In this document: positions 8,010-24,998 of the stretch, piece by piece | Layout: each line of letters opens with the position of its first letter | Numbering within the stretch: position 1 is the stretch's first letter | NCBI GenBank assembly: GCA_030606335.1 | Contig: JAUWGP010000003.1 | Span: 26,065 to 90,064, forward strand | Length of the DNA: 64,000 nt | Direction of reading: 5' to 3' | DNA from: a candidate division WOR-3 bacterium | GTDB taxonomy: Bacteria; Hydrothermota; UBA3073 | Position numbers and translations under genes: made by a program | The notes under the pieces: model-generated | Databases searched by the model: none | Seen by the model: only the letters and a program-made list of their open reading frames with translations | What the model was told of the DNA's origin: nothing

Positions 8010-10229
8010 TTATCTCTCCTTCACCTCCAGTATGTACGGAATCATATATAGATACTCAGAGGAAAGGAGCGACCTAATAGACGATAAATAATTGTCTAAA
8101 TCAAATGGTGAACCCATCATGCCTAAACTAAATCCTGTCTTCGGTTTAGGATATATATCGACATCTCTTTCCTTGATATCCGCCATTCTCTGTGCCTCAT
8201 CCAGCGCATCGAGCAAGCCTCCTATTTCATCTATAAGCCCTAACTCCTTTGCCTTAATTCCACTCCATATCCTTCCCTCTCCAATGGAGTGTATATATTC
8301 TTTTGAAGTATCCCTCTCTGATGCAACAAGATTGATAAACCTATCATAATACCATTCAACAGATTTTTTGATTCTCTCACGTTCATATTCATCCCACTTA
8401 TGTATCTCAGACATTATATCTGCATGCTTACCCAATTTTACTATATCCCATGATATTCCAATTTTATCATAGAGCTCCTTAAAAATAAAGTTTATCCAGA
8501 AAACACCTATAGAGCCTGTAAGTGTAGTATTGTCTGAAAATATTTTATCCCCATATATGGATATCACATATCCGCCTGAACCTGCAACACCACCCATTGA
8601 GATTATAACAGGTTTATCCTTACTTATATCCCTTAATGCATTTGTGATTAGTTCTGATGCTAATGCATCTCCCCCACCAGAATTCACTCTCAAGACCACT
8701 GCCTTTACATCTTCATCATCCCTTATACCCTCAAGCGTCTTTACCATATCATCTGAGCCCATATAACCCTGTGATGACTTTCCCCGTATGATATTTCCAT
8801 CCGCAATAACAAGTGCTATCTTTTTCTTGCCTTTTCTCCATTCTCTTCCCACTATCTTTTCTTTTTTAAATTTTCTTGCTCCAGAACCAATAAGCGAATC
8901 CAAATCCTGTTTTTCCAGTGCGGCATCTACCAATCTCGCCTCTATTGCTCCATCACTATTAAAAAAAATGCCTTCATCAATGAGTTTTTGCAGGCTATCT
9001 GTTGACATACCCCTTGCCTCAGCGATAATCTCAATTGTAGGATAATAAACATCTTCAAGATACTCTATGATCTGAAGGCTGTCTTCCTCAGACATATCCT
9101 TTCTTTCAAATGTCTCAGGAGTAGATTTAAATCTACCTATTCCTTCAACCTGAGCCTCTACACCGATTTTTTCCATTGTTCCCTTAAAATATATCCTTCT
9201 GATCTGTATGCCAGGTATAACAACTTTTCCAACTGGATGTACAAATATTGAATCTGCTATAGATGAAAGGTATAAAGAGCCCAGACCATAAGATAGCGAG
9301 TATATGTATATTTTCTTACCACTTGCCTTAAATCGACTCAGTTCATTCCTTATCTCCTCCCATTTGCTCATATGCATCAAAGAACCTTTTAATTCCAAAA
9401 CCAGACCTTTACAGGCATCATCCTCTGAAAGTTCCTTTATCTGAGATAATAACTTATAAAAGGGTGCCTCGATCTTCTCAAACAAAAATTGACTTCTTTT
9501 AAGCTCGGGATAAGAACCTTCTATCTTTAGCTCTGCAAAGCAAGGTTTGGGTTTCATGAAGGTTGGATATTTCTCGTTTGATAGGACTAAACCTGCATTA
9601 TAAGTTTCGTTATCATCATTTTTACCATATCTGCCACCTAAACCGATATTACCAAAAGAGATGGAAATACCTGCATTCCATACATCCTCATTACCATAAC
9701 CCTCTATGAAAATTCCATCCACAGGTTCTACCTTCAATCCCACGAAATAATCCGAAGACTCATCCTCAACATTGTAGTTATAATCAAAACTTAGTGTTAT
9801 TCTATCAGTACCTGGTCTAATGCCTATACCAGACTTGAGTAAAAAATTGTCTCCTATCTTATCACCCACAAACCCAAGTGAAAGAAACCTGTGGGGTCTT
9901 ACCGTTGTTCCAATAAGGTAACCCTTTGTATCACCAAATTTGTATCCATAACCCATATGTAGCCAATTGCATATTCGAGCTCCACTTGATAGCACATAAC
10001 TTGTTTGTTCACCCCTTATAACTGTTCCAAAACCCAGATTACCAAGCGAAAGACCGATGGTATGTGAAGTATCTATATCACTAAAACTTCCAAGATAAGA
10101 TAATTCAAGCCCTGGAGATATTGCAATCCCTGACGGATTTACAAATGACGAAAACGACCTCTGAGTTGTTGATACACTTACATCAGCAAAAAGTGTAATC
10201 ACAACAGACATCAGGATGTTTACCAACAT
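8010..10229 (-). CDS. sppA: signal peptide peptidase SppA (67K type, two ClpP-like domains) fused to an N-terminal beta-rich (outer-membrane-barrel-like) domain
   Basis: C-terminal two thirds carry tandem S49 peptidase domains (VLRVNSGGGDALASE...GGVAGSGGYVIS, and a second, degenerate S49 repeat). The N-terminal ~240 aa have alternating hydrophobic and Gly/Ser/Asn-rich strands (GYGYKFG, ISISFGNIGLGGRYG). Confidence 0.8.
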   Translation of the reverse strand: MLVNILMSVVITLFADVSVSTTQRSFSSFVNPSGIAISPGLELSYLGSFSDIDTSHTIGLSLGNLGFGTVIRGEQTSYVLSSGARICNWLHMGYGYKFGDTKGYLIGTTVRPHRFLSLGFVGDKIGDNFLLKSGIGIRPGTDRITLSFDYNYNVEDESSDYFVGLKVEPVDGIFIEGYGNEDVWNAGISISFGNIGLGGRYGKNDDNETYNAGLVLSNEKYPTFMKPKPCFAELKIEGSYPELKRSQFLFEKIEAPFYKLLSQIKELSEDDACKGLVLELKGSLMHMSKWEEIRNELSRFKASGKKIYIYSLSYGLGSLYLSSIADSIFVHPVGKVVIPGIQIRRIYFKGTMEKIGVEAQVEGIGRFKSTPETFERKDMSEEDSLQIIEYLEDVYYPTIEIIAEARGMSTDSLQKLIDEGIFFNSDGAIEARLVDAALEKQDLDSLIGSGARKFKKEKIVGREWRKGKKKIALVIADGNIIRGKSSQGYMGSDDMVKTLEGIRDDEDVKAVVLRVNSGGGDALASELITNALRDISKDKPVIISMGGVAGSGGYVISIYGDKIFSDNTTLTGSIGVFWINFIFKELYDKIGISWDIVKLGKHADIMSEIHKWDEYERERIKKSVEWYYDRFINLVASERDTSKEYIHSIGEGRIWSGIKAKELGLIDEIGGLLDALDEAQRMADIKERDVDIYPKPKTGFSLGMMGSPFDLDNYLSSIRSLLSSEYLYMIPYILEVKER

Positions 10230-10732: not shown

Positions 10733-10761
10733 TTGCAAAATTAAAAAATCTGTGGTATAAT
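10733..10761 (+). promoter_or_regulatory. sigma70-like promoter upstream of hsdR (TTGCAA-N17-TGgTATAAT)
   Basis: -35 ttgcaa at 10733-10738, 17-nt spacer, extended -10 tggtataat at 10753-10761, about 24 nt upstream of the hsdR ATG. Confidence 0.45.
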
Positions 10762-10784
10762 TCGTAAATTACTTCTAATAAATT

Positions 10785-13133
10785 ATGGAAAAATTTAATA
10801 TGCATCTCAGCGAAGCAGATACAAGAGCAAAATTAATTGACCCCGCTCTCCATCTTTCTGGATGGACAGAAGACCTTGTAAGACGTGAAGAAACTGAGAG
10901 AGGTATTGATATTATAGATGGAAAACCACGCAGAAGAAGAAGGGGACGAATAGATTATATTCTACGCATTAAAGTTAATATTAACTCACAACCCATCGCA
11001 GTTGCTTTAATAGAAGCTAAGAAAAGCGATAACCCACCTGATAAAGGACTCGAACAAGCAAAGAAGTACGCAAGACTAAATAACGTACCTTTTGTATATT
11101 CTTCCAATGGTCATCTCTTTGTGGAATATGACAACTTTACAGGTAAAACTTCTCACCCGAATTCTTTAGAAAAGTTTCCTACACCATTTGAACTACGACA
11201 ACGCCATGAAAAAGGGATTGGTATTTCACTTGATAAAGAAAATGCAAAGCCACTTCTTATCCCGTATCCAGGAGGTGAAGCAAGCCGTCGTTATTATCAG
11301 GATGCAGCAATTCGTGCTACACTCGAGAAAATTATACAGGGAAAAAAACGGATGCTCCTATTCCTTGCTACAGGCTCCGGGAAAACCTTCATTGCGGTTC
11401 GTCTTTTGAAGAAGATTGCAGATGCTGGGCATTTACATCGTGCTTTATTTCTTTGTGACAGGGATGAACTCCGAAATCAGGGACTTTCAGCATATCAAAA
11501 TATTTTTGGTGCTGATGCTGCTCCTGTATCTACTGCAAATCCACAGAAAAACGCAAGAATTTTAATAGCAACATATCAAACTCTTAATGTAGCAGGCGAG
11601 AACGAAGATGCTAAATTCTTACTCGATAACTATCCTGAAAACTATTTCAGTCATATAATAATCGATGAATGCCATAGGAGTGCCTGGGGTAAATGGAGTA
11701 TCGTGCTAAAAAGAAATTCCGATGCAATTCAAATAGGACTTACAGCCACTCCACGTTACTGGGAGGGTGGTAGTAAGGAGGAAAAAAAAGTAGACAAAGA
11801 GATAACTGCTAACAACCTTCAATATTTTGGCGAACCAATTTACGAATACTCAATGTCACAAGGAATTGAAGATGGTTATCTCCCTGCTTGTGAGGTGATA
11901 AGACGCGATGTGAATCTCGATATAATAGGTGTCACACGAAATGATATTAAAGTATTGGGAGCAAGAGATGCTACAACAGGTAAGCAACTTACACCCGACG
12001 AAACCCGTGAGATATACGAAGCTACATCCTTTGAGGATATTATTCAATTGCCTGACAGAGTAGAAACAATGTGTAAAGACCTTTTTAAAATGTTCCTTCA
12101 AACGGGTGGACCTCACCAGAAGACAGTTATTTTTTGTGTGCGTGATACCCATGCAGATGCCATTGCCGCTGAAATAAATAATCTTTATGCTGAGTGGTGT
12201 GATAGAAATAAGCAAAAAAGATATGAGCCTTATGCATTCAAATGCACTGCTTCTGTGGGAGGAAGCAAATATATATCAGATTTGCGTAGCTTAGAGCGAA
12301 GTCATTTTATCGCTACTACAGTTGATTTAATAACTACAGGAGTTGATATACCAATATTACGTAATGTAGTATTCTTTAGATATATCCGTTCTCCAATATA
12401 CTTTCAACAAATGATGGGAAGGGGGTCAAGAATTCATCTTCCTACAAATAAATTGATGTTTCGGGTTTATGATTATACGGATGCTACAAGACTGTTAGGA
12501 GAAGAGTTTAAGTCAAAACCCTCACCCACACGAGAAAAAAAGGAAACAGAAGAGGGAGAAAAAGAAAGAATAATCCGAGTAGAAGGATTTGATGTTCGAA
12601 TTAATCCTGCCGGAACTTATATTGTCACTGAAAAAGAAGGAAGATTATCAATGGTTACAGTAGAGGAGTACAAGCAGACTATTGCAGAGCACTTGGTTGA
12701 AAATGTTAAAACATTAGACGATCTTCGTCATAGATGGATAAATCCTGAGGAACGTGGAGAGCTTATAGATTCCCTTCCCGAAGACGGACGAGGAATAAGA
12801 ATGCTGCAGGAACTTCTTAATCGAAAAGAATATGACCTTTATGATTTAATGGCAGAAATCGGGTTTGGTGTATCCCCTAAAAGTCGTGAGGAAAGAGTTG
12901 AAGCCCTTCAATATAAACATGCTGACTGGTTTAAACATTTACCCTCAGAAACAGCAAAAACATTGTTTGCACTTGCAAGGCAATTTGAAAGAGGCGGTAC
13001 TGAAGAATTAGAAAACCCGTATGTTTTCAATGCTCCTGATGTTGTTAAAGCGGGTGGACATCAAGCTTTAAAGGTGCTTGGTGGACCAAAAGACATTATT
13101 ATTGAGATGAAAAGGAGGTTATTTGCAGCCTGA
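10785..13133 (+). CDS. hsdR: Type I restriction enzyme R subunit (EcoEI-like size class)
   Basis: N-terminal HsdR signature MHLSEADTRAKLIDPALHLSGW; helicase motif I LATGSGKT and motif II IIIDECHRS; 782 aa. Confidence 0.9.
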   Translation: MEKFNMHLSEADTRAKLIDPALHLSGWTEDLVRREETERGIDIIDGKPRRRRRGRIDYILRIKVNINSQPIAVALIEAKKSDNPPDKGLEQAKKYARLNNVPFVYSSNGHLFVEYDNFTGKTSHPNSLEKFPTPFELRQRHEKGIGISLDKENAKPLLIPYPGGEASRRYYQDAAIRATLEKIIQGKKRMLLFLATGSGKTFIAVRLLKKIADAGHLHRALFLCDRDELRNQGLSAYQNIFGADAAPVSTANPQKNARILIATYQTLNVAGENEDAKFLLDNYPENYFSHIIIDECHRSAWGKWSIVLKRNSDAIQIGLTATPRYWEGGSKEEKKVDKEITANNLQYFGEPIYEYSMSQGIEDGYLPACEVIRRDVNLDIIGVTRNDIKVLGARDATTGKQLTPDETREIYEATSFEDIIQLPDRVETMCKDLFKMFLQTGGPHQKTVIFCVRDTHADAIAAEINNLYAEWCDRNKQKRYEPYAFKCTASVGGSKYISDLRSLERSHFIATTVDLITTGVDIPILRNVVFFRYIRSPIYFQQMMGRGSRIHLPTNKLMFRVYDYTDATRLLGEEFKSKPSPTREKKETEEGEKERIIRVEGFDVRINPAGTYIVTEKEGRLSMVTVEEYKQTIAEHLVENVKTLDDLRHRWINPEERGELIDSLPEDGRGIRMLQELLNRKEYDLYDLMAEIGFGVSPKSREERVEALQYKHADWFKHLPSETAKTLFALARQFERGGTEELENPYVFNAPDVVKAGGHQALKVLGGPKDIIIEMKRRLFAA

Positions 13134-14034
13134 AAAGGAGATATTTGATTTTCTTGTTGAAAATGCAATATACCCTATGATTAGTAAGAAGGGTAAGGTC
13201 TTCTTTAAATATCCGAAGAAAGGAATGTTAACTGAGGCTAAAGCAAGAGAAATTATTGAACAATTGGATATTAAGACCAGAAATGACTGCAAAAAATTAA
13301 GGGAAAAAATCAGAAACCTGAGATCTGCATTCAGAGAAAATCGTCCTATAAGCAAATGGATTAAAGAGGAAAGACCAAGGGAGATGCTGGTTAAATACGG
13401 TCCCGAGTTCCTCCCTTTATCAAAACTTCTTGCAATAATATTAAGGATAGGAAGGGAAGGAATAAGTGCAGAAGAACTATCAAAAAGGTTATTGAATAAG
13501 TTTGGTGCATTAAGGAAAATAGATACTGCAACAATTTCTGAGATACGTGAGATAGAAGGAATAGGTCTTGCAAAAGCAGCACAAATAAAAGCTGCACTTG
13601 AACTTGGTAAAAGGCTATATAAAGAAACTGCTGTAAGGAAGAGAAAGATAACAAAACCAGATGAACTTATTGAGTATGTAGCAGAATATTACGGTCCTTA
13701 TCTAAGGGACTCTGTTAAAGAGTTTTTTTATGTCATACTTCTGGATATAAAAAATAAACCTATTGATAACGTGGAAATAAGTAAGGGTAGTATAAATGCA
13801 AGTGTGGTAGATCCAAAGGATATTGTAAAAGAAGCAACTATACGGTCAGCCTCGTCAATAATTTTGGTTCATAATCATCCATCAGGTGAGACAGACCCAT
13901 CTGAAGAGGATAAAAGGTTAACAAAATCAATTATAGATGCCTGTGAACTCATTGATATAAAGGTATTAGACCATATAATCATTGGAAAAAATCAAGAAGA
14001 CTATTTTAGTTTCGTAAAGAACGGATTGATATAA
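13123..14034 (+). CDS. radC: RadC-like JAB/MPN-domain protein with an N-terminal extension
   Basis: ERPREMLVKYGPEFLPLSKLLAIILRIGREG, HhH motif IEGIGLAKAAQI, JAMM motif LVHNHPSGETDPSEEDKRLT. TTG start with AAGGAGG 5 nt upstream; overlaps the hsdR stop by 11 nt. Confidence 0.8.
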   Translation: MQPEKEIFDFLVENAIYPMISKKGKVFFKYPKKGMLTEAKAREIIEQLDIKTRNDCKKLREKIRNLRSAFRENRPISKWIKEERPREMLVKYGPEFLPLSKLLAIILRIGREGISAEELSKRLLNKFGALRKIDTATISEIREIEGIGLAKAAQIKAALELGKRLYKETAVRKRKITKPDELIEYVAEYYGPYLRDSVKEFFYVILLDIKNKPIDNVEISKGSINASVVDPKDIVKEATIRSASSIILVHNHPSGETDPSEEDKRLTKSIIDACELIDIKVLDHIIIGKNQEDYFSFVKNGLI

Positions 14035-14050
14035 TAGAGATTATTTTATT

Positions 14051-15526
14051 ATGAAAAAATATAAAATATTCGTAAGTGGCGTTCAGAGAGAGCTCAAAGA
14101 GGAGCGGTTTGCAGTAAAAGAAATCATCACTCTGAACACTTTTTTAAAGAAATACTTTGATGTCTTTCTTTTTGAGGACCTGCCAGCCAAAAGCAAGCCA
14201 GCAGAAAAGGTCTACCTTGGAAAAGTCTCGGAGAGTGATATCCTGCTATTGTTATTGGGAAAGGAGTATGGACAACCCAGTCCTGATGGTCTTTCAGCTA
14301 CAGAAAGGGAATTTAGAAAGGCTGTGGAACGGAATTTGAAAATCCTGGTTTTTTTGAGAGGAGAAGATGACTCTACCAGAGACAGGCGGGTTAGAAATCT
14401 TATACGGGAGATAAAAAGACCGGGCAGTGGATATACTTATGATGAATTTAATGGTACGTCCGATTTAAAAGAATGTGTTTTCAATAGTCTTGTAGAACTC
14501 CTGGAGGATGATGGTATTCTTGCCAGGCTCCCCTTCGATTCTACAATTTGTGAAGAAGCAACTTATGAAGACATAAATGAAGAACTGGTAGAGAACTTCC
14601 TGAAGTATAGAGCAATAAAACTAAAAGTGGAAGTTCCTGAAATACCCATAAGAGATTTCTTAGTAAAGACTATTAAAGCGGTCCGGGAATTAGACGGAAT
14701 CTTTAAGCTAACTAATGCAGCGATTCTTTTCTTTTGTGATTATCCTCAAGAATTCATTTCTCAAAGCAGTATAAAGATAGCAAGATACAGGGGGAATTCA
14801 AGGATAGAATTTATTGACTCACAGGAACTTACTGGTCCATTCTATAAAATAATTGATGATTTAGAGATATTCTTTAAAAGAAATACCCGATTAGCCAGCA
14901 AGATTGTGGAGTTTAAGAGAGTGGATATTCCCGAGTATCCCTTTGAGGCAATAAGAGAAGGAATAGTCAATGCAATGGCTCACAGAGATTATCTCCGCAT
15001 TGGTTCTAATATTCAGATGGATATCTTTAACGATAGAATAGAGGTCACCAGCCCCGGAGGACTTCTTCCAGGGTTGGACATTAAAAATCTGGAAGGGGTT
15101 CATGAGACGAGAAACAAAAGGATTTGCAAAATCTTTCACGAAACGAAAGATATGGAAAGATATGGGACTGGTATTACTAAAATGAAGAATTGGATGACAG
15201 AACACGGTTTGAAGCCGCCAGTAATAACTCAACCAGGTGATTTCTTCAGAATTAATTTTTATGGTCCGGGTGATAAGATATTAGATTTAGTTCCCAATAT
15301 ACCCGAAGAAAGACAAACAGATTTGAAAAAATTGGGCTTAAATAACAGACAAATAGAAGCATTAAGATTGATGGTAAATGAAGGGAAAGCCTTAACAAAC
15401 AGAAAATACAGAGAATTGTTTAACGTTAGCAATCAAACATTCGTTAGAGATATGCGACTACTGTCCAAGTTGGAATTTGTCACTTCCGAAGGTAAAGGTC
15501 GGTCTTTGCAATACAAAGCAAAATAA
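14051..15526 (+). CDS. DUF4062 / AlbA_2 (divergent AAA) / HATPase_c_4 protein with C-terminal HTH (Schlafen-like 'RecG-related' regulator family)
   Basis: N-terminus KIFVSGVQRELKEERFAVKEII...ILLLLLGKEYG matches the DUF4062 pattern. The middle has AIREGIVNAMAHRDYLRIGSNIQMDIFNDRIEVTSPGGLLPG (HATPase_c_4). The C-terminus has an HTH (NNRQIEALRLMVNEGKALTNRKYRELFNVSNQTFVRDMRLL). Confidence 0.6.
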   Translation: MKKYKIFVSGVQRELKEERFAVKEIITLNTFLKKYFDVFLFEDLPAKSKPAEKVYLGKVSESDILLLLLGKEYGQPSPDGLSATEREFRKAVERNLKILVFLRGEDDSTRDRRVRNLIREIKRPGSGYTYDEFNGTSDLKECVFNSLVELLEDDGILARLPFDSTICEEATYEDINEELVENFLKYRAIKLKVEVPEIPIRDFLVKTIKAVRELDGIFKLTNAAILFFCDYPQEFISQSSIKIARYRGNSRIEFIDSQELTGPFYKIIDDLEIFFKRNTRLASKIVEFKRVDIPEYPFEAIREGIVNAMAHRDYLRIGSNIQMDIFNDRIEVTSPGGLLPGLDIKNLEGVHETRNKRICKIFHETKDMERYGTGITKMKNWMTEHGLKPPVITQPGDFFRINFYGPGDKILDLVPNIPEERQTDLKKLGLNNRQIEALRLMVNEGKALTNRKYRELFNVSNQTFVRDMRLLSKLEFVTSEGKGRSLQYKAK

Positions 15527-15527
15527 C

Positions 15528-15700
15528 AATGTCACGAAACAAGTCCAAATGTCACGAGAATGTCATGAAAAAGCATGTCACGAAAAGTGAGAGAATGTCA
15601 CGGAATGCGTCACGAAAAAAGTATCCACAAAGGTGGAAAATTAATTTAAGAAATGTCCCTAAAAATTAAAAATGTCCTTAATAATGTCCGAAATCAGTAA
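15528..15700. repeat. array of about 9 degenerate AATGTCAC / AATGTCC motifs
   Basis: caATGTCACgaaa, aaATGTCACgag, aATGTCAtgaaa, gcATGTCACgaaa, gaATGTCACgga, gCGTCACgaaa, then aATGTCCct, aATGTCCtta, aATGTCCgaaa, irregularly spaced 12-21 nt apart. Confidence 0.5.
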
Positions 15701-15767
15701 TCCTAAGATAGAACTTCCAGCAGGCTGGCGATGGGTGAGACTGGGCAAGAAGATAGAAATTTATTGA
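15684..15767 (+). pseudogene. hsdS: hsdS N-terminal remnant (27 codons)
   Basis: Encodes MSEISNPKIELPAGWRWVRLGKKIEIY*, matching the N-terminus of the full hsdS (ILPPDWRWVKLGEVCEF); ctggcgatgggtga is shared at the nucleotide level. Confidence 0.5.
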
Positions 15768-15774
15768 TTTATAT

Positions 15775-16458
15775 GTGGAGGTGTCGTTAATGCTTAATCT
15801 ACAGAGAGGAATTCCAATCGAAGATGGAGATTTGTTTATCTTAGATACAAATCCATTCAGATTTTTGTATCTGGCAGCGGAAAGCCTAATCAAAGATGCA
15901 GAGCAAGCTGCAACCAAAAATAAGCATCGGGTTGAAATTAATCATTCTATTGGAGCACTTGTGGTGCTTCTTCTATCTACCGAAGCACTCATAAACAGAG
16001 TGTATGAGTGTTTCCTTAGAAGTAAATTCCCCAGACAGATATACGAAGAGATTATGGGTAAATGGTCTCTCACAATGAAATGGTATTTTGCTCCTCTGAT
16101 TTATAAATCTGGTGGTAACAATAAAACCTTTGATGTTAAAAAAGAACCCTGGCAATCTTTTTCTGAACTGAAAAAGATCAGGGATTATTTTGCTCACCCA
16201 AAGCCAGCCCAATTTCCCTTTACAGTATTAGATGCTAAAAAAAAGATCTTGGATGTTAATGAGGGCGTTATACCAAGATGGCCCCAAACAACAATTCCTA
16301 AAGACTTGAACCATTTTCGTTGGAAGGATGCTCAAACGGTTTTGGAAATTATTAATAAAATGATTGATAAATTAGACTCCTTCATGGGGGGAACAATCAA
16401 AAAGGACGATTGGTATTTAATAGAACAAATGAGTAAATATGAAAAAGCAGCTGAATAA
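15775..16458 (+). CDS. hypothetical protein embedded in the Type I RM locus
   Basis: About 222-227 aa. GGAGG at 15777-15781 precedes the ATG at 15790; the track ORF starts at GTG 15775. No recognisable motif. The 3' end overlaps the hsdS start by 20 nt. Confidence 0.5.
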   Translation: MEVSLMLNLQRGIPIEDGDLFILDTNPFRFLYLAAESLIKDAEQAATKNKHRVEINHSIGALVVLLLSTEALINRVYECFLRSKFPRQIYEEIMGKWSLTMKWYFAPLIYKSGGNNKTFDVKKEPWQSFSELKKIRDYFAHPKPAQFPFTVLDAKKKILDVNEGVIPRWPQTTIPKDLNHFRWKDAQTVLEIINKMIDKLDSFMGGTIKKDDWYLIEQMSKYEKAAE

Positions 16459-17581
16459 AGAAATACTTCCACCCGACTGGCGATGGGTGAAGTTGGGGGA
16501 AGTATGTGAGTTTGCGTATGGTTCAGGATTACCGGTACGAGATAGATTGAAGGGTCTCATTCCTGTATTTGGCTCAAACGGTGTTATTGGTTACCATAAC
16601 ATGGCAATTACTCAAAGTCCTACAATTATAATTGGTCGCAAGGGTTCAATTGGTCAAGTGAATTCTTCAGAATCTCCATGTTGGCCAATTGATACAACTT
16701 ACTACATTGACGAATCCAAAACCTCCTGTTATCTACATTGGCTGTACTGGTTACTTAAGTACCTGAGACTAGACGAACTTAATAAAGCGACTGGGGTGCC
16801 AGGTTTGAATCGTAATGACGCCTATAGTCAAGTTATCCCCCTCCCTCCTCTTTCTGAGCAGAAGCGCATCGCTGCAAAAATTAAGGAGTTAATGCAGGAG
16901 GTAGAACATGCCCGAACAGCCTGCGAAAAGCAATTAGAGGCAGCAAAAGCCCTTCCCTCCGCATATCTGCGAGAGGTCTTTAAAAGCGAAGATGCAAAGA
17001 AGTGGGAGAGTAAGAGGTTGGGAGAGGTTTGTGAGACTACAAGCGGAGGCACTCCATATAGAGGGAATAAAGAGTATTTTGACGGGGATATTCCCTGGGT
17101 GAAATCGGGAGAATTGGAAGACAATTACATCTATGACACGGAAGAGAAAATAACAGAATTAGGTCTTAAAAATTCTAGTGCTAAAATTTTGCCTATGGGA
17201 ACATTGTTAATTGCAATGTATGGAGCAACTGTTGGAAAGTTGGGGGTCTTGAATATTTCCGCTACTACTAATCAAGCTATTTGTGCCATTATTCCAAATT
17301 CCAAAGCCTCGACCAATTTTCTCTTTTTCTTTTTCATGCATTTTAGAAGAGACCTGGTCAATAAATCTTATGGAGGTGCTCAGCCAAATATCAGTCAAGA
17401 ACTAATAAAAGAAACACACATTCCTTTTCCGTCTATAAAAACCCAGCATCGTATTGCCGCTGAACTCAAAGAAAAAAAAGCAGAGGTAGATAAACTTCAC
17501 TCATCCATTGAAAGACAATTTGAAGCAATAAACGCCTTGCCACAGGCAATTTTAAGGAAGGCATTCATAGGGAAGTTGTGA
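16439..17581 (+). CDS. hsdS: Type I restriction-modification specificity subunit (two target-recognition domains)
   Basis: Two half-repeats, each starting with a conserved motif (LPPDWRWVKLGEVCEF / ESKRLGEVCETTSGGTP), each followed by a conserved coiled-coil spacer (LPPLSEQKRIAAKI..., FPSIKTQHRIAAEL...). Confidence 0.9.
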   Translation: MKKQLNKEILPPDWRWVKLGEVCEFAYGSGLPVRDRLKGLIPVFGSNGVIGYHNMAITQSPTIIIGRKGSIGQVNSSESPCWPIDTTYYIDESKTSCYLHWLYWLLKYLRLDELNKATGVPGLNRNDAYSQVIPLPPLSEQKRIAAKIKELMQEVEHARTACEKQLEAAKALPSAYLREVFKSEDAKKWESKRLGEVCETTSGGTPYRGNKEYFDGDIPWVKSGELEDNYIYDTEEKITELGLKNSSAKILPMGTLLIAMYGATVGKLGVLNISATTNQAICAIIPNSKASTNFLFFFFMHFRRDLVNKSYGGAQPNISQELIKETHIPFPSIKTQHRIAAELKEKKAEVDKLHSSIERQFEAINALPQAILRKAFIGKL

Positions 17582-17634
17582 TGGAAATTAAACCTACTAC
17601 ATTTATCTCTGTGATATCAACAAAAATATAAGAA

Positions 17635-18702
17635 ATGAATCTAAATAAACGGTCAAATAGCTTTTCCCAAGAAAATATTACTCGCATTACAGAATTCTTT
17701 AAAAATCAGCAACTTCCTGAACCTCATTTACATCTTTTTAAGAGTGTGGTTTGGAAGGGATATCGTTGGAGAGCAATTTGGAACACTCTCCATTATCGTC
17801 CACTTCATGAAACATTTCATGAATTTATCATATATATTTTGAAAGCAACTTTTGGTGAAAAATGGCGCAAAGAGCAGATGAATTTGTCTGAAGAAGAAAG
17901 ACATATTCTTATTCGCTGGGTTAAATCTTATGGTGAATGGAAAAAAGCTACTCATAATGATGAAAAGAAAGAAGGCGAGTATATCTATGGTGCTATCCCA
18001 AGTGGTGAAGTTATGGCACTCCATTCATTTGCTTATGATATATATTGCCTCCAAGTAGTCAATAAGTTACCAAACTTCTTAGTAAATAGACTGAAGAATA
18101 AAAATGAATTCCAAGGTGCAAGATATGAAATAGCTGTGGCTGCTATTATCGCTCGAGCGGGCTTTGCTATAACCTTCCTCGATGACAAGGTTAAAAGTCA
18201 AAAGCATTGTGAATTCGTCGCCAAGAATAAATATTCTGGGTTACAAATTGGAGTTGAAGCTAAAAGTCGAAGAAGGAAAGGTGTACTCCATGAAAAAGGA
18301 AATTTGAATTACTCTTCAGTTGTAAGAGGAGACATTGAGAACCTTTTTGAAAAGGCTCTTACTCAGAGGCCCAAGAACATGCCATATTTTATTTTCATCG
18401 ACTTGAATGTAATGCCTACCCCAGACCCAGAAATTCCCCCTGACAAAAAACCATGGTTTAAGGATATAAAATTGCTATTAGATAGATATGGGATACCTTC
18501 TAAAGAAAATCCAGATCCGTTTAATGCATTGGTGTTGACTAATTTTTCTTATTATTATTTGGGAAACTTACCTATTACTCATTTGGGAGAATACGGTCTA
18601 ATCATCTCTGAAATTCCAGAATACCCGTGCAAAGATATGCAGGCTATAAGTGAAATATGGGAAAGTTTAGGACGGTATTCTCATATTCCGAAAGATGTAT
18701 AA
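17635..18702 (+). CDS. hypothetical protein between hsdS and hsdM; possible PD-(D/E)xK-like nuclease core (inference)
   Basis: 355 aa with no P-loop. The segment ARYEIAVAAIIARAGFAITFLDDKVKSQKHCEFVAKNKYSGLQIGVEAKSRRRK fits a helix-E, strand-D, strand-ExK arrangement. Confidence 0.45.
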   Translation: MNLNKRSNSFSQENITRITEFFKNQQLPEPHLHLFKSVVWKGYRWRAIWNTLHYRPLHETFHEFIIYILKATFGEKWRKEQMNLSEEERHILIRWVKSYGEWKKATHNDEKKEGEYIYGAIPSGEVMALHSFAYDIYCLQVVNKLPNFLVNRLKNKNEFQGARYEIAVAAIIARAGFAITFLDDKVKSQKHCEFVAKNKYSGLQIGVEAKSRRRKGVLHEKGNLNYSSVVRGDIENLFEKALTQRPKNMPYFIFIDLNVMPTPDPEIPPDKKPWFKDIKLLLDRYGIPSKENPDPFNALVLTNFSYYYLGNLPITHLGEYGLIISEIPEYPCKDMQAISEIWESLGRYSHIPKDV

Positions 18703-18725
18703 CCTTATACCCTAAATTATCTTAT

Positions 18726-20231
18726 ATGCGAAAAAATTCTCACAAAATAACCACACCACAATCTCTGAATGCCTATATCAAGGGTATCTGTGATATTATG
18801 CGGAGGTCGGGAAGAGCTGGGGCTCTCCAGTATGTGCCTGAACTTACCTGGATGCTCTTCCTCCGTATTCTTGATGAAAAAGAGGAGATAGAAGTAGAAT
18901 ATACTAAAGCATTAGGTAGAGAATTTATTCCTTCACTCCAATATCCATATCGCTGGCGAGATTGGGCTGCTCCTGATGGAGAAAAAAGAAAGGAATTACA
19001 AGAGGGAACATTTGGAAGATTTATGAGCTTCGTCGATGGAGACCTGCTCCCTACCCTCAAAAAATTAAAGGATAAACCTGGTGCAACTCCTCGTCAGAAG
19101 GTTGTCAGTCAAGTCTTCTCCTCTTTTGAAAAAACGGGTATTGATACCGAACGCAATCTTTTAGATATACTTGATAAAATTCATGAACTCTCCTTGGAGC
19201 AAGTTGAAGAAACCCACATGTTCACACTCTCCCAGGTCTATGAGGGACTGATACAGAAAATGGGTGAGAAAAACAACGACGGTGGACAGTTTTTCACACC
19301 AAGAGAGGTTATTCGTGTTATGGTTAAAGTGATTGACCCGAAGATTGGAGAAACCGTTTATGACCCCTGCTGTGGAACGGGTGGGTTTCTGGCTCAGGCA
19401 TATCTACATATGAATAAAAATGCAACAATAGCAGATGACATTGAAACCCTCAAGATTAGAACCTTCTACGGTAGAGAGAAAGAAAATCTTGTTTACCCCA
19501 TTGTCCTTGCAAATCTCGTGCTTCATGAGATAGATGAACCACATATATGGCATGGCAACACGCTAACAGGTCATGAGGTTTATGGTGGACTTTTCCAAAG
19601 TGCACCCGTCCTCTTTGATGTAGTCCTCACTAATCCTCCCTTTGGTGGTAAAGAGGGAAAAGATGCTCGGACTCATTTTGCCTATAAAACCAGCTCTACA
19701 CAGGTATTGTTCTTGCAACATGTCATTGATAACCTTAAAAATAGTGGCAGGTGTGGAATCGTAATGGATGAAGGTGTTTTATTCCGCACAAATGAGAAAG
19801 CCTTTGTCCAGACTAAACGCAAACTCTTGAGTGAGTGCAACCTCTATTGTATTGTAAGTCTTCCTCCCAAGGTATTCCTTAATGCTGGTGCAGCAAGTAA
19901 AACCAATCTACTTTTTTTCACTAAAGGTGAACAAACTAAAGAAATATGGTATTATGACCTATCTGATTTAAATGTAACAAAAAGGCAGCCCTTAACTATG
20001 CATCACTTTGAGGAGTTCTTTAAATTATTACCAGAAAAAAAAGAAAGTGAGCATTCCTGGAAGGTTCCAATAGAAGAAATAGAAGAGAAAAATTACGACA
20101 TAAAAGCAGTAAATCCAAACAGAAAAATCGAGGAAGACACAAGAAGCCCGCAAGAGCTATTAGCAATTATTGAGTCCCAGCAAAAAGAAATCACAAACGC
20201 ATTATCAAAATTGAAAGATAAAGGCTTGTGA
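18726..20231 (+). CDS. hsdM: Type I restriction-modification N6-adenine DNA methyltransferase subunit
   Basis: HsdM N-domain (GALQYVPELTWMLFLRILDEKEE), GTGGFL SAM-binding motif, NPPFGG catalytic motif. The start is taken at the ATG at 18726, after the stop of the upstream gene. Confidence 0.9.
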   Translation: MRKNSHKITTPQSLNAYIKGICDIMRRSGRAGALQYVPELTWMLFLRILDEKEEIEVEYTKALGREFIPSLQYPYRWRDWAAPDGEKRKELQEGTFGRFMSFVDGDLLPTLKKLKDKPGATPRQKVVSQVFSSFEKTGIDTERNLLDILDKIHELSLEQVEETHMFTLSQVYEGLIQKMGEKNNDGGQFFTPREVIRVMVKVIDPKIGETVYDPCCGTGGFLAQAYLHMNKNATIADDIETLKIRTFYGREKENLVYPIVLANLVLHEIDEPHIWHGNTLTGHEVYGGLFQSAPVLFDVVLTNPPFGGKEGKDARTHFAYKTSSTQVLFLQHVIDNLKNSGRCGIVMDEGVLFRTNEKAFVQTKRKLLSECNLYCIVSLPPKVFLNAGAASKTNLLFFTKGEQTKEIWYYDLSDLNVTKRQPLTMHHFEEFFKLLPEKKESEHSWKVPIEEIEEKNYDIKAVNPNRKIEEDTRSPQELLAIIESQQKEITNALSKLKDKGL

Positions 20232-20239
20232 GATATAAT

Positions 20240-20451
20240 ATGATAAAATCTAACCCTTTCACTCCAAAGTCTGGTTTGGAGCAGAAAATCTTTTTCAATA
20301 GGGAAGATGAGATAAAATTGCCGATATTGAGATAAAAAGTTTGAATGTTTATCTTCGTAGGTTGGTAGAGAAAGAAATCTTAATTGGTGTTAGGCGTGGC
20401 GAATATAAATTAAAAGACATTCTATTGTGTGAATACCTGAGAAGAAAATAA
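20240..20451 (+). pseudogene. degraded remnant of an AAA-type (PF01637-like) ATPase gene
   Basis: Frame A encodes MIKSNPFTPKSGLEQKIFFNREDEIKLPILR*, the characteristic NPF.P...FxxREDEI N-terminus of 'archaeal-type' ATPases. A second frame at 20353-20451 encodes LRRLVEKEILIGVRRGEYKLKDILLCEYLRRK*, a wHTH-like C-terminus. The body of the gene is missing. Confidence 0.3.
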
Positions 20452-20812
20452 CAAAAATTACAAATCAAGCCTAATGTTGTAATTTCTGTAATTTTGGATA
20501 TAGAATTCTTAGGGATCGTAGGGTCAAGTCTCAACATAAGACATTTTTATTGGCGAGGGAAGTTCGGTGGCGGGGTACTCCAACGAGAGCTGTAATTTGA
20601 GTGCATTACCTTGGTAATGCAAGTGGGCGGTAGCAAGCTATTGCAATTCTTAATCTCTAAGATAGATTTTATTTAATAAAAAGGAAATATTAATAGGGAT
20701 TACAATTAGAAAGATAAACTTCTTTTGGTAAGACTAATGGGGGTCAGTTCTTGGCACACTCCAAAGAAGTTTTAATAGCACTGTAGAAATTAATCAGTAT
20801 TAGGATATAGAT

Positions 20813-21859
20813 ATGTTTAAACCAAAATTCACAATCACCAATAAAATAAACAATTTCCTTCTTGAAATTGAGAGGGCAAGAGGATTTTTGGAGGCGGCAA
20901 AGTTAAAGGAGGCATGGATAAAGGATATGCAAAGTGAAGCACTTATCCTTGAAGCGCACCACTCTACACATATTGAAGGAACTCAACTGACCTTATCCCA
21001 GGCTCAAAGAATTCTTACCGGCAAATCTGTAAAGGGCATTAGGAAAGATGATCGTCAAGAACTCCTGAACTATAAAGAGGCAACTGATTTTGTCTCCGAA
21101 TACCTGGGGAAGAAATTAGAAATCACGGAGGATTTAATTAAGCAGATACACAAGATTTTAGTTAAAGATGTCAGGGGTGGAACCCTTGAGCCAGGAAGAT
21201 ATAGAAAAGTTCAGAATTATGTAGTCAACTCCTTGACAAGAGCAATAATTTATATTCCGCCCCCTCCAGAGGAAGTTCCTAAACTAATGAAAGAATTCGT
21301 TGAATGGTTAAACGTAAAAAAGAAGATATCACCTGTGCTCATGGCAGGGATCAGTCAATATCAGTTTGTTGACATTCATCCCTTCTTAGATGGAAACGGA
21401 AGGACTGCTCGTGTTTTATGTACGCTCATTCTTTATCAGAATGAATATGATTTTAAAAGGCTTTTTTCATTGTCCGAATATTACGACAAAAAACGCCGGA
21501 GGTACTACGACGCCATTCAATCAGTGAGAGAGAATAATATAGATATGACAGAATGGCTCGAATATTTTACAGAAGGACTGAAAAATCAATTGATAGAAGT
21601 AAAAACAAAGGGAGAAAAGGCAATTAAAAAGGAAGTTCTCATTGAGAAGGCTAAAAGATTTAACTTAAACGAGCGTCAACAGAAAATTTTATTACATTTA
21701 TTGGAGCAAAAGCGGATTTCGGTTGAGGAAATCAGACAGAAATATAATTTGGTTAGAAGAACGATTCAACGTGATTTCTCAAAATTGGTTGAGTTAGGTC
21801 TAATAAAGGAAATAGCAAAAAGCAAGACAGACCCTACAAGGTATTATGAATTACTGTGA
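20813..21859 (+). CDS. fic: Fic/DOC family protein (AMPylator-type) with C-terminal winged-helix domain
   Basis: Canonical Fic motif HPFLDGNGRTARVL; 348 aa. Confidence 0.9.
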   Translation: MFKPKFTITNKINNFLLEIERARGFLEAAKLKEAWIKDMQSEALILEAHHSTHIEGTQLTLSQAQRILTGKSVKGIRKDDRQELLNYKEATDFVSEYLGKKLEITEDLIKQIHKILVKDVRGGTLEPGRYRKVQNYVVNSLTRAIIYIPPPPEEVPKLMKEFVEWLNVKKKISPVLMAGISQYQFVDIHPFLDGNGRTARVLCTLILYQNEYDFKRLFSLSEYYDKKRRRYYDAIQSVRENNIDMTEWLEYFTEGLKNQLIEVKTKGEKAIKKEVLIEKAKRFNLNERQQKILLHLLEQKRISVEEIRQKYNLVRRTIQRDFSKLVELGLIKEIAKSKTDPTRYYELL

Positions 21860-21903
21860 CATTTTACTGCGACAATACTGTGACATTTACTGTGACATAA
21901 TTA
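21857..21903. repeat. 4 tandem CTGTGACAT units (12-13 nt period)
   Basis: ctgtgacatttta ctgcgacaata ctgtgacattta ctgtgacataatt immediately after the fic stop. The core GTGACAT is the reverse complement of the ATGTCAC array at 15528-15700. Confidence 0.5.
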
Positions 21904-21973
21904 TTGAGGTCGGGAGACCTCTCCCACAAAGTTTGTATTGGGAGAAATGGGGGTCAGGCTAATGGAGAAATGG

Positions 21974-22142
21974 GGGTCAGGCTAAGAGATAAGAAATAGA
22001 AAATAATCTCACTACTTTGCCACGAAATATCAGATGATAAAAATCTCCTTCATATTCTATCCTCAGTTTCCTGGCATATTTTTATTTTACTATAACTTTC
22101 CCTCTATCTCAAGCAATTATCTCTTATCTTTTAGCCTGACCC
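21974..22142. repeat. about 170 bp MITE-like element, copy 1 (24-nt terminal inverted repeats gggtcaggctaagagataagaaat / atctcttatcttttagcctgaccc)
   Basis: The TIRs are perfect reverse complements over about 20 nt. The interior is near-identical to 24808-24978. A partial extra TIR copy sits at 21942-21964. Confidence 0.6.
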
Positions 22143-22161
22143 ACAATACCACTCTAAAATT

Positions 22162-24702: not shown

Positions 24703-24807
24703 GTTTCTTGAGTTTTCACAGTTTATTGAGTTTCTTGAGTTATTGGGTTTGTTGGGTCTTAGGGTAGTACTTAAGGGGGTCAAGAAATGGGGGTCATCAA
24801 GAAATGG

Positions 24808-24978
24808 GGGTCAGGCTAAAAGATAAGAGATAGAATATAGTCTCACTCCTATTGCCACGAGATATCAAATGATAAAAATCTCCTTCATATTCTATCCTCA
24901 GTTTCCTGGGCATATTTTCGTTTTACTTTAACTTTCCCTCTGTCTCAAGCAATTATCTCTTATCTTTTAGCCTGACCC
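24808..24978. repeat. about 170 bp MITE-like element, copy 2 (same orientation as copy 1)
   Basis: gggtcaggctaaaagataagagat ... atctcttatcttttagcctgaccc, with an interior matching copy 1. Confidence 0.6.
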
Positions 24979-24998
24979 GCAATATTCCCGCAATATTA

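Follow-up and report, generated by a model that had tools for sequence, protein, structure and literature searches.

PrrC, encoded within a Type I restriction-modification (RM) operon, has a nuclease domain that belongs to the HEPN superfamily. It is controlled by EcoprrI (PMC3710099, PMC12707154), and in 2013 at least 16 HEPN clades were linked to RM operons, together with a model of multi-pronged defence by analogy with PrrC (PMC3710099). In Campylobacter jejuni, hsd loci have been described with the order hsdR - open reading frames (ORFs) - hsdS - ORFs - hsdM, with both gaps filled by rlo (R-linked) and mlo (M-linked) ORFs, cargo that varies between strains, and evidence of within-family recombination (PMC5183652, citing Miller 2005; PMC11411939). 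That defence genes can function from within a Type I operon was demonstrated for TgvAB (PMC11411939). Finally, 2026 preprints report DUF4062 as a TIR-like NADase acting in abortive phage defence with variable auxiliary regions, as in Swarozyc, Evangelion and NIR (bioRxiv 10.64898/2026.05.01.722283, 10.64898/2026.06.25.731849). Here we describe a chromosomal Type I RM island of an uncultured bacterium of candidate division WOR-3, lying on the + strand at approximately 10.7 to 21.9 kb of a 64-kb stretch of DNA (the window), and two gene families within it that we call unkA and unkB.

The island consists of an intact Type I RM operon, EcoAI/EcoEI-like, in which the core genes run hsdR...hsdS...hsdM. 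Nine ORFs follow one another on the + strand, and the full row reads hsdR, a radC-like gene, the gene of a DUF4062 protein, a 5' remnant of hsdS, unkA, hsdS, unkB, hsdM, a spacer and fic (Table 1); the identical row is present on an independent Logan contig (L001). An earlier sequence-only reading had this order and these ORFs right, while the starts of unkA (most likely 15790) and hsdM (probably 18726) had to be corrected and its ATPase remnant was not confirmed. Calling the order atypical was overstated, since loci that run R...S...M and have other ORFs in between were already described (PMC5183652, citing Miller 2005). Its view of the interleaved genes as defence cargo is plausible, but the architecture is not new (PMC3710099, PMC5183652, PMC11411939). 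What sets the window apart from the Campylobacter loci is its host, a WOR-3 bacterium, its cargo, comprising a putative ATPase-less HEPN protein, a predicted PD-(D/E)xK nuclease of a SEC-C-type family and a DUF4062 protein, and the fact that crossover points and scar are resolved to the nucleotide.

None of the three hsd genes is truncated, and each carries its motifs. HsdR has the superfamily 2 (SF2) helicase motor, the N-terminal nuclease region and EcoEI_R_C, and the hsdM translation contains NPPF and DPCCGTGGF. Against the NCBIfam EcoAI/FtnUII equivalog, HsdR reached 483 bits, under the 550-bit cut-off; judged by this score, it is related to the EcoAI family rather than an equivalog. The start of hsdM is probably the ATG at 18726, as in the L001 gene, and the longest ORF opens at 18657. 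The two internal gaps and the 3' flank of the operon are variable, with cargo that differs between loci. This comparison shows that these positions act as slots with cargo that is interchangeable between loci, and they would gather accessory defence genes. We therefore consider it probable that this is an intact Type I operon whose slots collect defence cargo, with unkA, unkB, the DUF4062 protein and Fic as predicted added layers.

Table 1. Features of the Type I island in the window, its alignment with a close relative (L098), and other loci that carry unkA or unkB
Feature	Position	Strand	Description	Evidence
hsdR	10785-13133	+	Type I restriction subunit, 782 aa, EcoAI/EcoEI-like	Pfam ResIII, SWI2_SNF2, DEAD, HSDR_N, EcoEI_R_C; PADLOC REase_I 5e-95
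radC-like gene	13177-14034	+	JAB-domain gene, 285 aa	Pfam RadC 6e-40, UPF0758_N; NCBIfam RadC family above cut-off
491-aa protein	14051-15526	+	N-terminal DUF4062, Schlafen/AlbA_2-like middle, HATPase_c_4, C-terminal helix-turn-helix (HTH)-like tail	Pfam DUF4062 4e-18, HATPase_c_4 2e-23
Repeat array	15529-15620	+	five ATGTCACGAAA-like direct repeats and a sixth, more degenerate copy, GTCACGAAAAAAGT (15609-15622)
hsdS 5' remnant	15684-15767	+	27 codons and stop, encodes MSEISNPKIELPAGWRWVRLGKKIEIY*	aligns to the intact L098 hsdS start
Swapped cassette	15736-18734	+	remnant tail, unkA, hsdS, unkB; replaces the relative's hsdS body and 223-aa gene
unkA	15790-16458	+	222-aa predicted HEPN-fold protein; E65, N69, R131-x4-H136
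hsdS	16439-17581	+	specificity subunit, 380 aa, two target-recognition domains	Pfam Methylase_S, two stretches, 1e-45; PADLOC Specificity_I 1.5e-74
unkB	17635-18702	+	355-aa predicted PD-(D/E)xK nuclease; E165, E193, E208-A-K210, D256, N258
hsdM	18726-20231	+	Type I methyltransferase, 501 aa	Pfam N6_Mtase 3e-66, HsdM_N; PADLOC MTase_I 1e-175
Spacer	20232-20812	+	short ORFs only	no hidden Markov model (HMM) match; conserved with L098 to 20504
fic	20813-21859	+	348 aa, SoFic-like AMPylase, C-terminal winged HTH (wHTH)	Pfam Fic 9e-24, HTH domains; PADLOC SoFic 1.7e-71, full length
Left collinear block	12929-15735		equals L098 1-2808	91% identity (blastn)
Divergent block	15736-18734		against L098 2809-4708	only conserved central and C-terminal hsdS regions match, 80-82% (blastn)
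Right collinear block	18735-20504		equals L098 4709-6478	92.8% identity (blastn)
unkA locus L006-8/L089			hsdR - 491 aa - unkA - hsdS
unkA locus L003-5/L091			hsdR - DUF6883 - DUF4926 - unkA - hsdS - Mrr_cat - 296 aa - PIN - hsdM
unkA locus L093			hsdM - 79 aa - unkA - hsdS
unkB locus L009			Omnitrophota: M-S-R-YgjP-unkB-Mrr_cat
unkB locus L012	L012 4777-15753 (JACRIJ010000029.1)		Planctomycetota metagenome-assembled genome: hsdS-hsdM-Fic-hsdS-AAA_15 fragment-unkB-AlbA_2-237 aa-hsdR; unkB embedded
unkB locus L028			R-M-S-unkB
unkB locus L055			unkB directly clustered with Type I genes

A close relative (contigs L098/L099) has an island at the same chromosomal site, with flanking genes that are 91 to 97% identical in DNA. 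The genes there run hsdR - radC - 491 aa - hsdS (397 aa) - 223 aa - hsdM - fic (379 aa) - Toluene_X - transglutaminase-domain gene. Conservation of the two unknown genes across relatives, which the sequence-only reading had proposed to check, did not hold here: unkA and unkB are both absent from this collinear island. The left junction between the two alleles lies at about 15735/15736, approximately 50 nt into the relative's hsdS and within the conserved 5' LPxGWRW-coding motif, while the right break is the hsdM start codon. The hsdS N-terminal remnant that had been proposed upstream of unkA proved correct: it aligns to the start of the relative's intact hsdS (MSEISNPKIELPAGWRWV... against MSEISNHQTELPGGWRWG...), and from GAGACTGGGCAAG onward the window matches the L006 sequence upstream of unkA. 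Given the relative's island without unkA and unkB, and given where the two breaks are, the remnant is the left scar of a homologous cassette swap. The alignments thus show that the present state of this region arose by homologous recombination, which swapped in unkA, an hsdS of new specificity and unkB together. The window HsdS is only 35% identical to that of the relative, with the central and C-terminal regions kept and different recognition domains, so that one exchange changed specificity and added two genes. The 223-aa gene of the relative was considered as an unkA homologue and rejected by comparison; it has no family match either.

In L003/L005 and in L006-8, unkA likewise follows a remnant of an hsdS start, and the L006-8 remnant carries an in-frame stop. 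An ancestral insertion of unkA behind an hsdS start would therefore have left a patch of homology, and such a patch may let a cassette composed of patch, unkA, hsdS and cargo recombine into sister operons. A second allelic replacement was found downstream of hsdM, from position 20505 to approximately 21800-21967 of the window against 6479-9812 of L098. Here, the window fic encodes 348 aa with a C-terminal wHTH, the fic of the relative encodes 379 aa with Fic_N, and the gene of the Toluene_X outer-membrane channel is absent from the window.

We then turn to unkA, the gene immediately upstream of hsdS. The sequence-only reading had given it 227 aa and an overlap with the hsdS start. The overlap stood and amounts to 20 nt at the 3' end of unkA, but the protein most likely has 222 aa, starting at the ATG at 15790 rather than with the longer ORF (15775-16458), because the homologues (210 to 231 aa) start at Met6 of the window ORF and an independent gene call agrees. 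Close homologues formed only 11 clusters, with identities of 56 to 92%, while an exhaustive profile search recovered 154 representatives at E<=1e-3. Pairwise dN/dS values of 0.11 to 0.28 revealed purifying selection, indicating that unkA is a real gene under selection.

The AlphaFold model of unkA was confident (predicted local distance difference test [pLDDT] 92.2) and mainly helical. Foldseek returned no significant E-value, and its highest-probability matches were HEPN domains. In an alignment of 72 sequences, E65, R131 and H136 were the only invariant residues, with N69 conserved in at least 90%; the family thus has the HEPN Rx4-6H pattern plus a conserved acidic/polar residue. The R-x4-H dyad is the signature of catalytic HEPN RNases (PMC3710099). 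A weak match to Pfam PF18735 HEPN_RiboL-PSP was obtained for six of the 72 relatives (best E 3e-4). On the basis of model and motif, unkA is predicted to be an all-alpha HEPN bundle protein. Neither an ABC/Rad50-like ATPase domain nor any P-loop family was matched in Pfam, PADLOC or NCBIfam, and membership of the PrrC family was rejected, as there is no ABC ATPase.

All close homologues of unkA with readable flanks lie within an EcoAI/EcoEI-like Type I locus, and wherever hsdS is present unkA directly precedes it, the two frames either overlapping or abutting (Table 1). The sole exception to this adjacency among close homologues is L092 (339-1754), a decayed locus that consists of an N-terminal hsdR fragment, an intact unkA with R-x4-H and the last ~40 codons of hsdM, hsdS being gone. 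A metagenome scan with a narrow unkA alignment yielded only five loci. The distant-relative profile search was dominated by a subfamily of ~347 aa, and the three distant relatives looked up (P0310, P0332 and P0328; 328 to 383 aa) stand alone and are not linked to RM. RM linkage is therefore a property of the close unkA subfamily and is not generalisable. As for the slots of these loci, the DUF6883/DUF4926 pair fills the one between hsdR and hsdS, and Mrr_cat, the 296-aa gene and PIN fill the one between hsdS and hsdM (L003 2090-2667 and 4803-7216; L091 7163-12289). Since the latter contains Mrr_cat, a nuclease is present there too, in the position of unkB.

Compared with described systems, unkA resembles PrrC/EcoprrI in being a predicted HEPN-superfamily gene within a Type I operon, and by this analogy a model of an abortive RNase guarded by RM is plausible. 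Unlike PrrC and RloC, it has 222 aa and no ABC ATPase, lies upstream of hsdS and belongs to an EcoAI-like rather than a Type IC locus. Furthermore, RM masking and a tRNA target are features of PrrC; what ties unkA to RM here is its linkage in the operon. It is also similar to the RM-linked HEPN clades (among others Abi2/AbiD/F, AbiU2, AbiJ, ApeA and RiboL-PSP-HEPN; PMC3710099), in which a solo HEPN domain with Rx4-6H is found in a conserved neighbourhood with RM genes, and the RiboL-PSP-HEPN profile is the nearest to unkA, albeit weakly and in the six relatives mentioned above. In contrast to these clades, the window unkA escapes Pfam, PADLOC and NCBIfam, belongs to a small subfamily (~11 clusters) and is linked specifically to the start of hsdS.

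The second family, unkB, comprises 301 clusters at E<=1e-3. In most members the N-terminus bears a SEC-C zinc motif (CxCGSGKKYKxCC), and their database names go no further than 'SEC-C domain-containing' or 'YecA family'; the window protein and its closest relatives (58 to 81% identity) are without this motif. The core of unkB had no match in Pfam (E<=10), NCBIfam, PADLOC or PHROGs, and in the first three of these no Mrr_cat or other Type IV catalytic profile matched. Except via the SEC-C motif, no solved structure was related to it in sequence, and a tblastn search of plasmids gave only distant, partial matches annotated as SEC-C proteins. The structural model was nevertheless confident (pLDDT 88.8, predicted TM-score [pTM] 0.89), and the invariant or near-invariant positions are ETFHEF (59-64), H90, D135, QGxRYE (160-165), C192-E193, E208-A-K210-S211, D256 and N258. 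From this model we predict for unkB a nuclease of the PD-(D/E)xK type with a restriction-endonuclease-like alpha/beta core, preceded by an uncharacterised N-terminal domain of ~160 residues. Within the N-terminal domain of the family, the set ETFHEF...H90...D135 is invariant.

The context of unkB was studied at 80 genomic loci, with an iterative search seeded by the window Hsd proteins and hsd genes within 10 kb being counted. This placed hsdM, hsdS or hsdR within 10 kb of unkB at about 8 of the 80 loci, with direct clustering at four (L009, L012, L028 and L055). Such a frequency seems well above chance, the baseline of one Type I system per genome being an estimate rather than a measured control. 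A nuclease fold, one of those that the sequence-only reading had proposed to search for, is thus predicted for unkB, and the gene is found again and again within or next to Type I loci, five of them independent. The Planctomycetota locus (L012), an unrelated Type I locus of different gene order, contains the same cargo families as the island described here, which suggests a recurrent accessory set of Fic, a Schlafen/AlbA_2-like protein and unkB. In addition, an 81%-identical homologue lies directly behind an hsdS of the window's family that has a different second target-recognition domain (TRD2). Among the immediate neighbours of unkB (n=143) we found five serine recombinases, three AAA_21 proteins, two KAP NTPases, two YgjP, two AlbA_2 and two integrases; others were HSP70, MreB and glycosyltransferases. 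Some copies lie in apparent mobile elements and others beside housekeeping genes. Heterogeneous neighbours together with recurrent RM adjacency indicate that unkB is stand-alone and that its association with Type I systems is facultative. In this respect it is similar to TgvAB, nuclease-type genes in a Type I operon that were proposed to complement it and whose homologues are far commoner outside such operons. However, unkB is a single protein with a predicted PD-(D/E)xK core, whereas TgvAB is a DUF262/DUF1524 HNH pair.

For both unknowns, family profile searches gave nothing for the cores (Pfam, PADLOC, NCBIfam, PHROGs), while the search for nuclease or NTPase folds pointed to an HEPN-like fold for unkA and a PD-(D/E)xK fold for unkB, although the Foldseek E-values of unkA were not significant. 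The proposal that the two are RM-coupled defence genes fits unkA, with its HEPN signature and its strict linkage to Type I loci and hsdS; unkB is not specifically coupled to RM, most of the 80 copies lying outside RM loci.

Two further cargo genes could contribute to defence. In the 491-aa protein, DUF4062 (PF13271) spans residues 5-91 and is followed by an auxiliary region (residues 159-489), as in the single-gene abortive architecture of Swarozyc and Evangelion. Unlike these systems as described, its auxiliary region combines AlbA_2/Schlafen-like, HATPase_c_4 and HTH parts, and a keyword search of the text of two of these preprints gave no mention of this combination. Of the three domains previously assigned to this protein, DUF4062 and HATPase_c_4 were confirmed, but AlbA_2 was not found at Pfam E<=0.01; only PADLOC and PHROG models match the middle region, namely the PADLOC Aga/pAgo-associated models at residues 159-390 and PHROG 12156. 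The sequence also contains a 'SATEREF' segment. In Fic, the motif HPFLDGNGRTAR is intact (Fic consensus HxFx(D/E)GNGRxxR), and the protein scored 86.7 bits against the NCBIfam SoFic equivalog, whose cut-off is 550.

Taken together, these genes would form several layers. HsdR, HsdM and HsdS would restrict unmethylated DNA. unkA, a predicted metal-independent HEPN endoribonuclease that would be co-expressed with HsdS via the overlapping frames, would provide a second layer of the abortive-infection type. By analogy with PrrC, though lacking the ATPase domain, it would most likely be held by the methyltransferase/restriction complex or be triggered when this complex is inhibited. unkB, as a predicted stand-alone DNA nuclease, would add restriction, possibly of DNA escaping the Type I system. 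The DUF4062 protein, with a predicted TIR-like NADase and a nucleic-acid-sensing region, and the SoFic-like AMPylase may represent further abortive layers. One could go further and see in unkA a new, ATPase-less lineage of RM 'guardian' RNases physically coupled to HsdS, in the hsdS fragment a portable homology handle by which a cassette of guardian, specificity and nuclease would pass between EcoAI-like Type I operons, and in unkB the founder of a widespread, unrecognised single-gene nuclease defence family, mostly with a SEC-C motif fused to the PD-(D/E)xK core; we regard this extension as rather doubtful.

Several observations weigh against the layered reading that we favor. The window unkA has no match in Pfam (E<=10), NCBIfam, PADLOC, PHROGs or PDB sequences, and no sequence profile links it directly to HEPN. 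In unkB, the canonical aspartate position varies, the motif being E...E...ExK instead of D...ExK. A scan of the island for promoters and terminators found 40 sites where 37 were expected, no better than in shuffled sequence. Moreover, the majority of the 80 unkB copies, with their heterogeneous neighbours, are away from RM genes, often next to recombinases, integrases or other defence ATPases, the distant unkA relatives stand alone, and the persistence of an intact unkA without hsdS in L092 argues, at the sequence level, against an RM complex being obligatory to neutralise unkA. These last three points would also be expected if unkA and unkB were independent single-gene defence or selfish genes that hitch-hike with hsdS alleles in a tolerated, co-expressed and recombining spot, with no coupling to RM. 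The interchangeable cargo of both slots fits such an explanation as well, and TgvAB, active without HsdR (PMC11411939), provides a precedent. Still, the close unkA homologues with readable flanks are always in Type I loci and adjoin hsdS, over 56 to 92% identity and in two gene orders, and linkage so tight is unexpected of a pure hitch-hiker. We thus judge hitch-hiking to be unlikely, if worth keeping in mind.

It is more improbable still that unkA is a non-catalytic, HEPN-like helical protein serving RM as an assembly factor, as a regulator of hsdS translation, or as a protein for restriction alleviation or control, holding restriction back once the cassette has reached a new host. Non-catalytic HEPN domains do exist (PMC3710099), the unkA and hsdS frames overlap, the repeat array upstream suggests regulation, and unkA moves with an hsdS of new specificity, precisely when a delay of restriction would be required. 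However, 72 diverged sequences, among them ones not linked to RM, all share R-x4-H and the acidic residue, a pattern typical of catalytic HEPN RNases (PMC3710099), and the hsdS of the relative works in the same scaffold without unkA. Finally, the scars in the locus, that is, the hsdS remnant and a 580-nt spacer with short ORFs only, might suggest an RM locus in degeneration, with interleaved ORFs that are no more than passengers in decay or noise of the annotation and have no present function. This is very hard to reconcile with the dN/dS values of unkA, with the confident folds and conserved catalytic-type residues of both unknowns and with the full-length hsd genes, and is largely refuted by these conservation data already. 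Our preferred reading therefore remains that of an operon whose slots collect defence genes.

The remaining features of the island are less directly concerned. The radC-like gene was confirmed and is also present in the island of the relative, but its proposed translational coupling to hsdR hinges on an uncertain TTG start at 13123, which would give a protein of 303 aa overlapping hsdR. The region at 20231-20813, formerly taken for an ATPase pseudogene remnant, holds short ORFs only, and neither these nor a stitched peptide gave an HMM match even at E<=10. Two of the short ORFs, at 20228-20451 (MRYNMIKSNPFTPKSGLEQKIFFNREDEI... and ...YLRRLVEKEILIGVRRGEYKL...), are possible ends of a deleted ATPase/wHTH gene, again with no HMM support.

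In the repeat array upstream of the hsdS remnant, the ATGTCACGAAA-like repeats are irregularly spaced (11 to 20 nt), and five of the seven ATGTCACGAAA-like matches in the whole window fall inside the array, versus 1.06 expected by chance. Three AATGTCC repeats follow at 15652-15690 and run into the start codon of the remnant. L098 keeps the array upstream of its intact hsdS (2601-2677), and other unkA loci have different short repeats resembling the start of their own remnant (ATGAGCC..., AATGCGCA...). The array, which lies ahead of where the ancestral hsdS began, may be an operator or another regulatory element, perhaps one bound by the HTH of the adjacent 491-aa protein.

The island is flanked by ordinary chromosomal genes, namely the housekeeping genes dxs, deoC, NIF3, uvrB and sppA on the left, and genes for a transglutaminase-domain protein, PEPCK, thiC and malic enzyme on the right. 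One neighbouring protein falls into a cluster, at 90% identity or above, with proteins that bear the name 'candidate division WOR-3 bacterium'. Profile scans of the island and its flanks revealed no integrase, transposase or tRNA. Because of this, and because of the housekeeping flanks and the occupation of the same site in the relative, we rejected the idea that the island is a mobile element. To its right, a direct repeat of ~190 bp (85 to 97% identical; 21957-22148 and 24791-24984) brackets the 846-aa transglutaminase-domain gene, and the upstream one of the two copies is found in L098 as well (9813-9995); a repeat element and a duplication are both conceivable.

That defence can be built in layers on a Type I operon was known before, and the value of this locus is mainly one of candidate discovery. 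New are two unannotated families with fold-level predictions and a case, at nucleotide resolution, in which accessory genes have moved together with an hsdS allele. Both families, unannotated in Pfam, NCBIfam, PADLOC and PHROGs, gain testable predictions: an HEPN RNase tied to hsdS, and a large nuclease family so far labelled 'SEC-C domain protein'. The paired island alleles of the close relatives represent a natural experiment that shows, to the base pair, how a Type I operon changed specificity and gained accessory, predicted defence genes in a single homologous exchange. Should unkA indeed be controlled by the RM complex, the principle of PrrC would extend to a minimal, ATPase-less protein.

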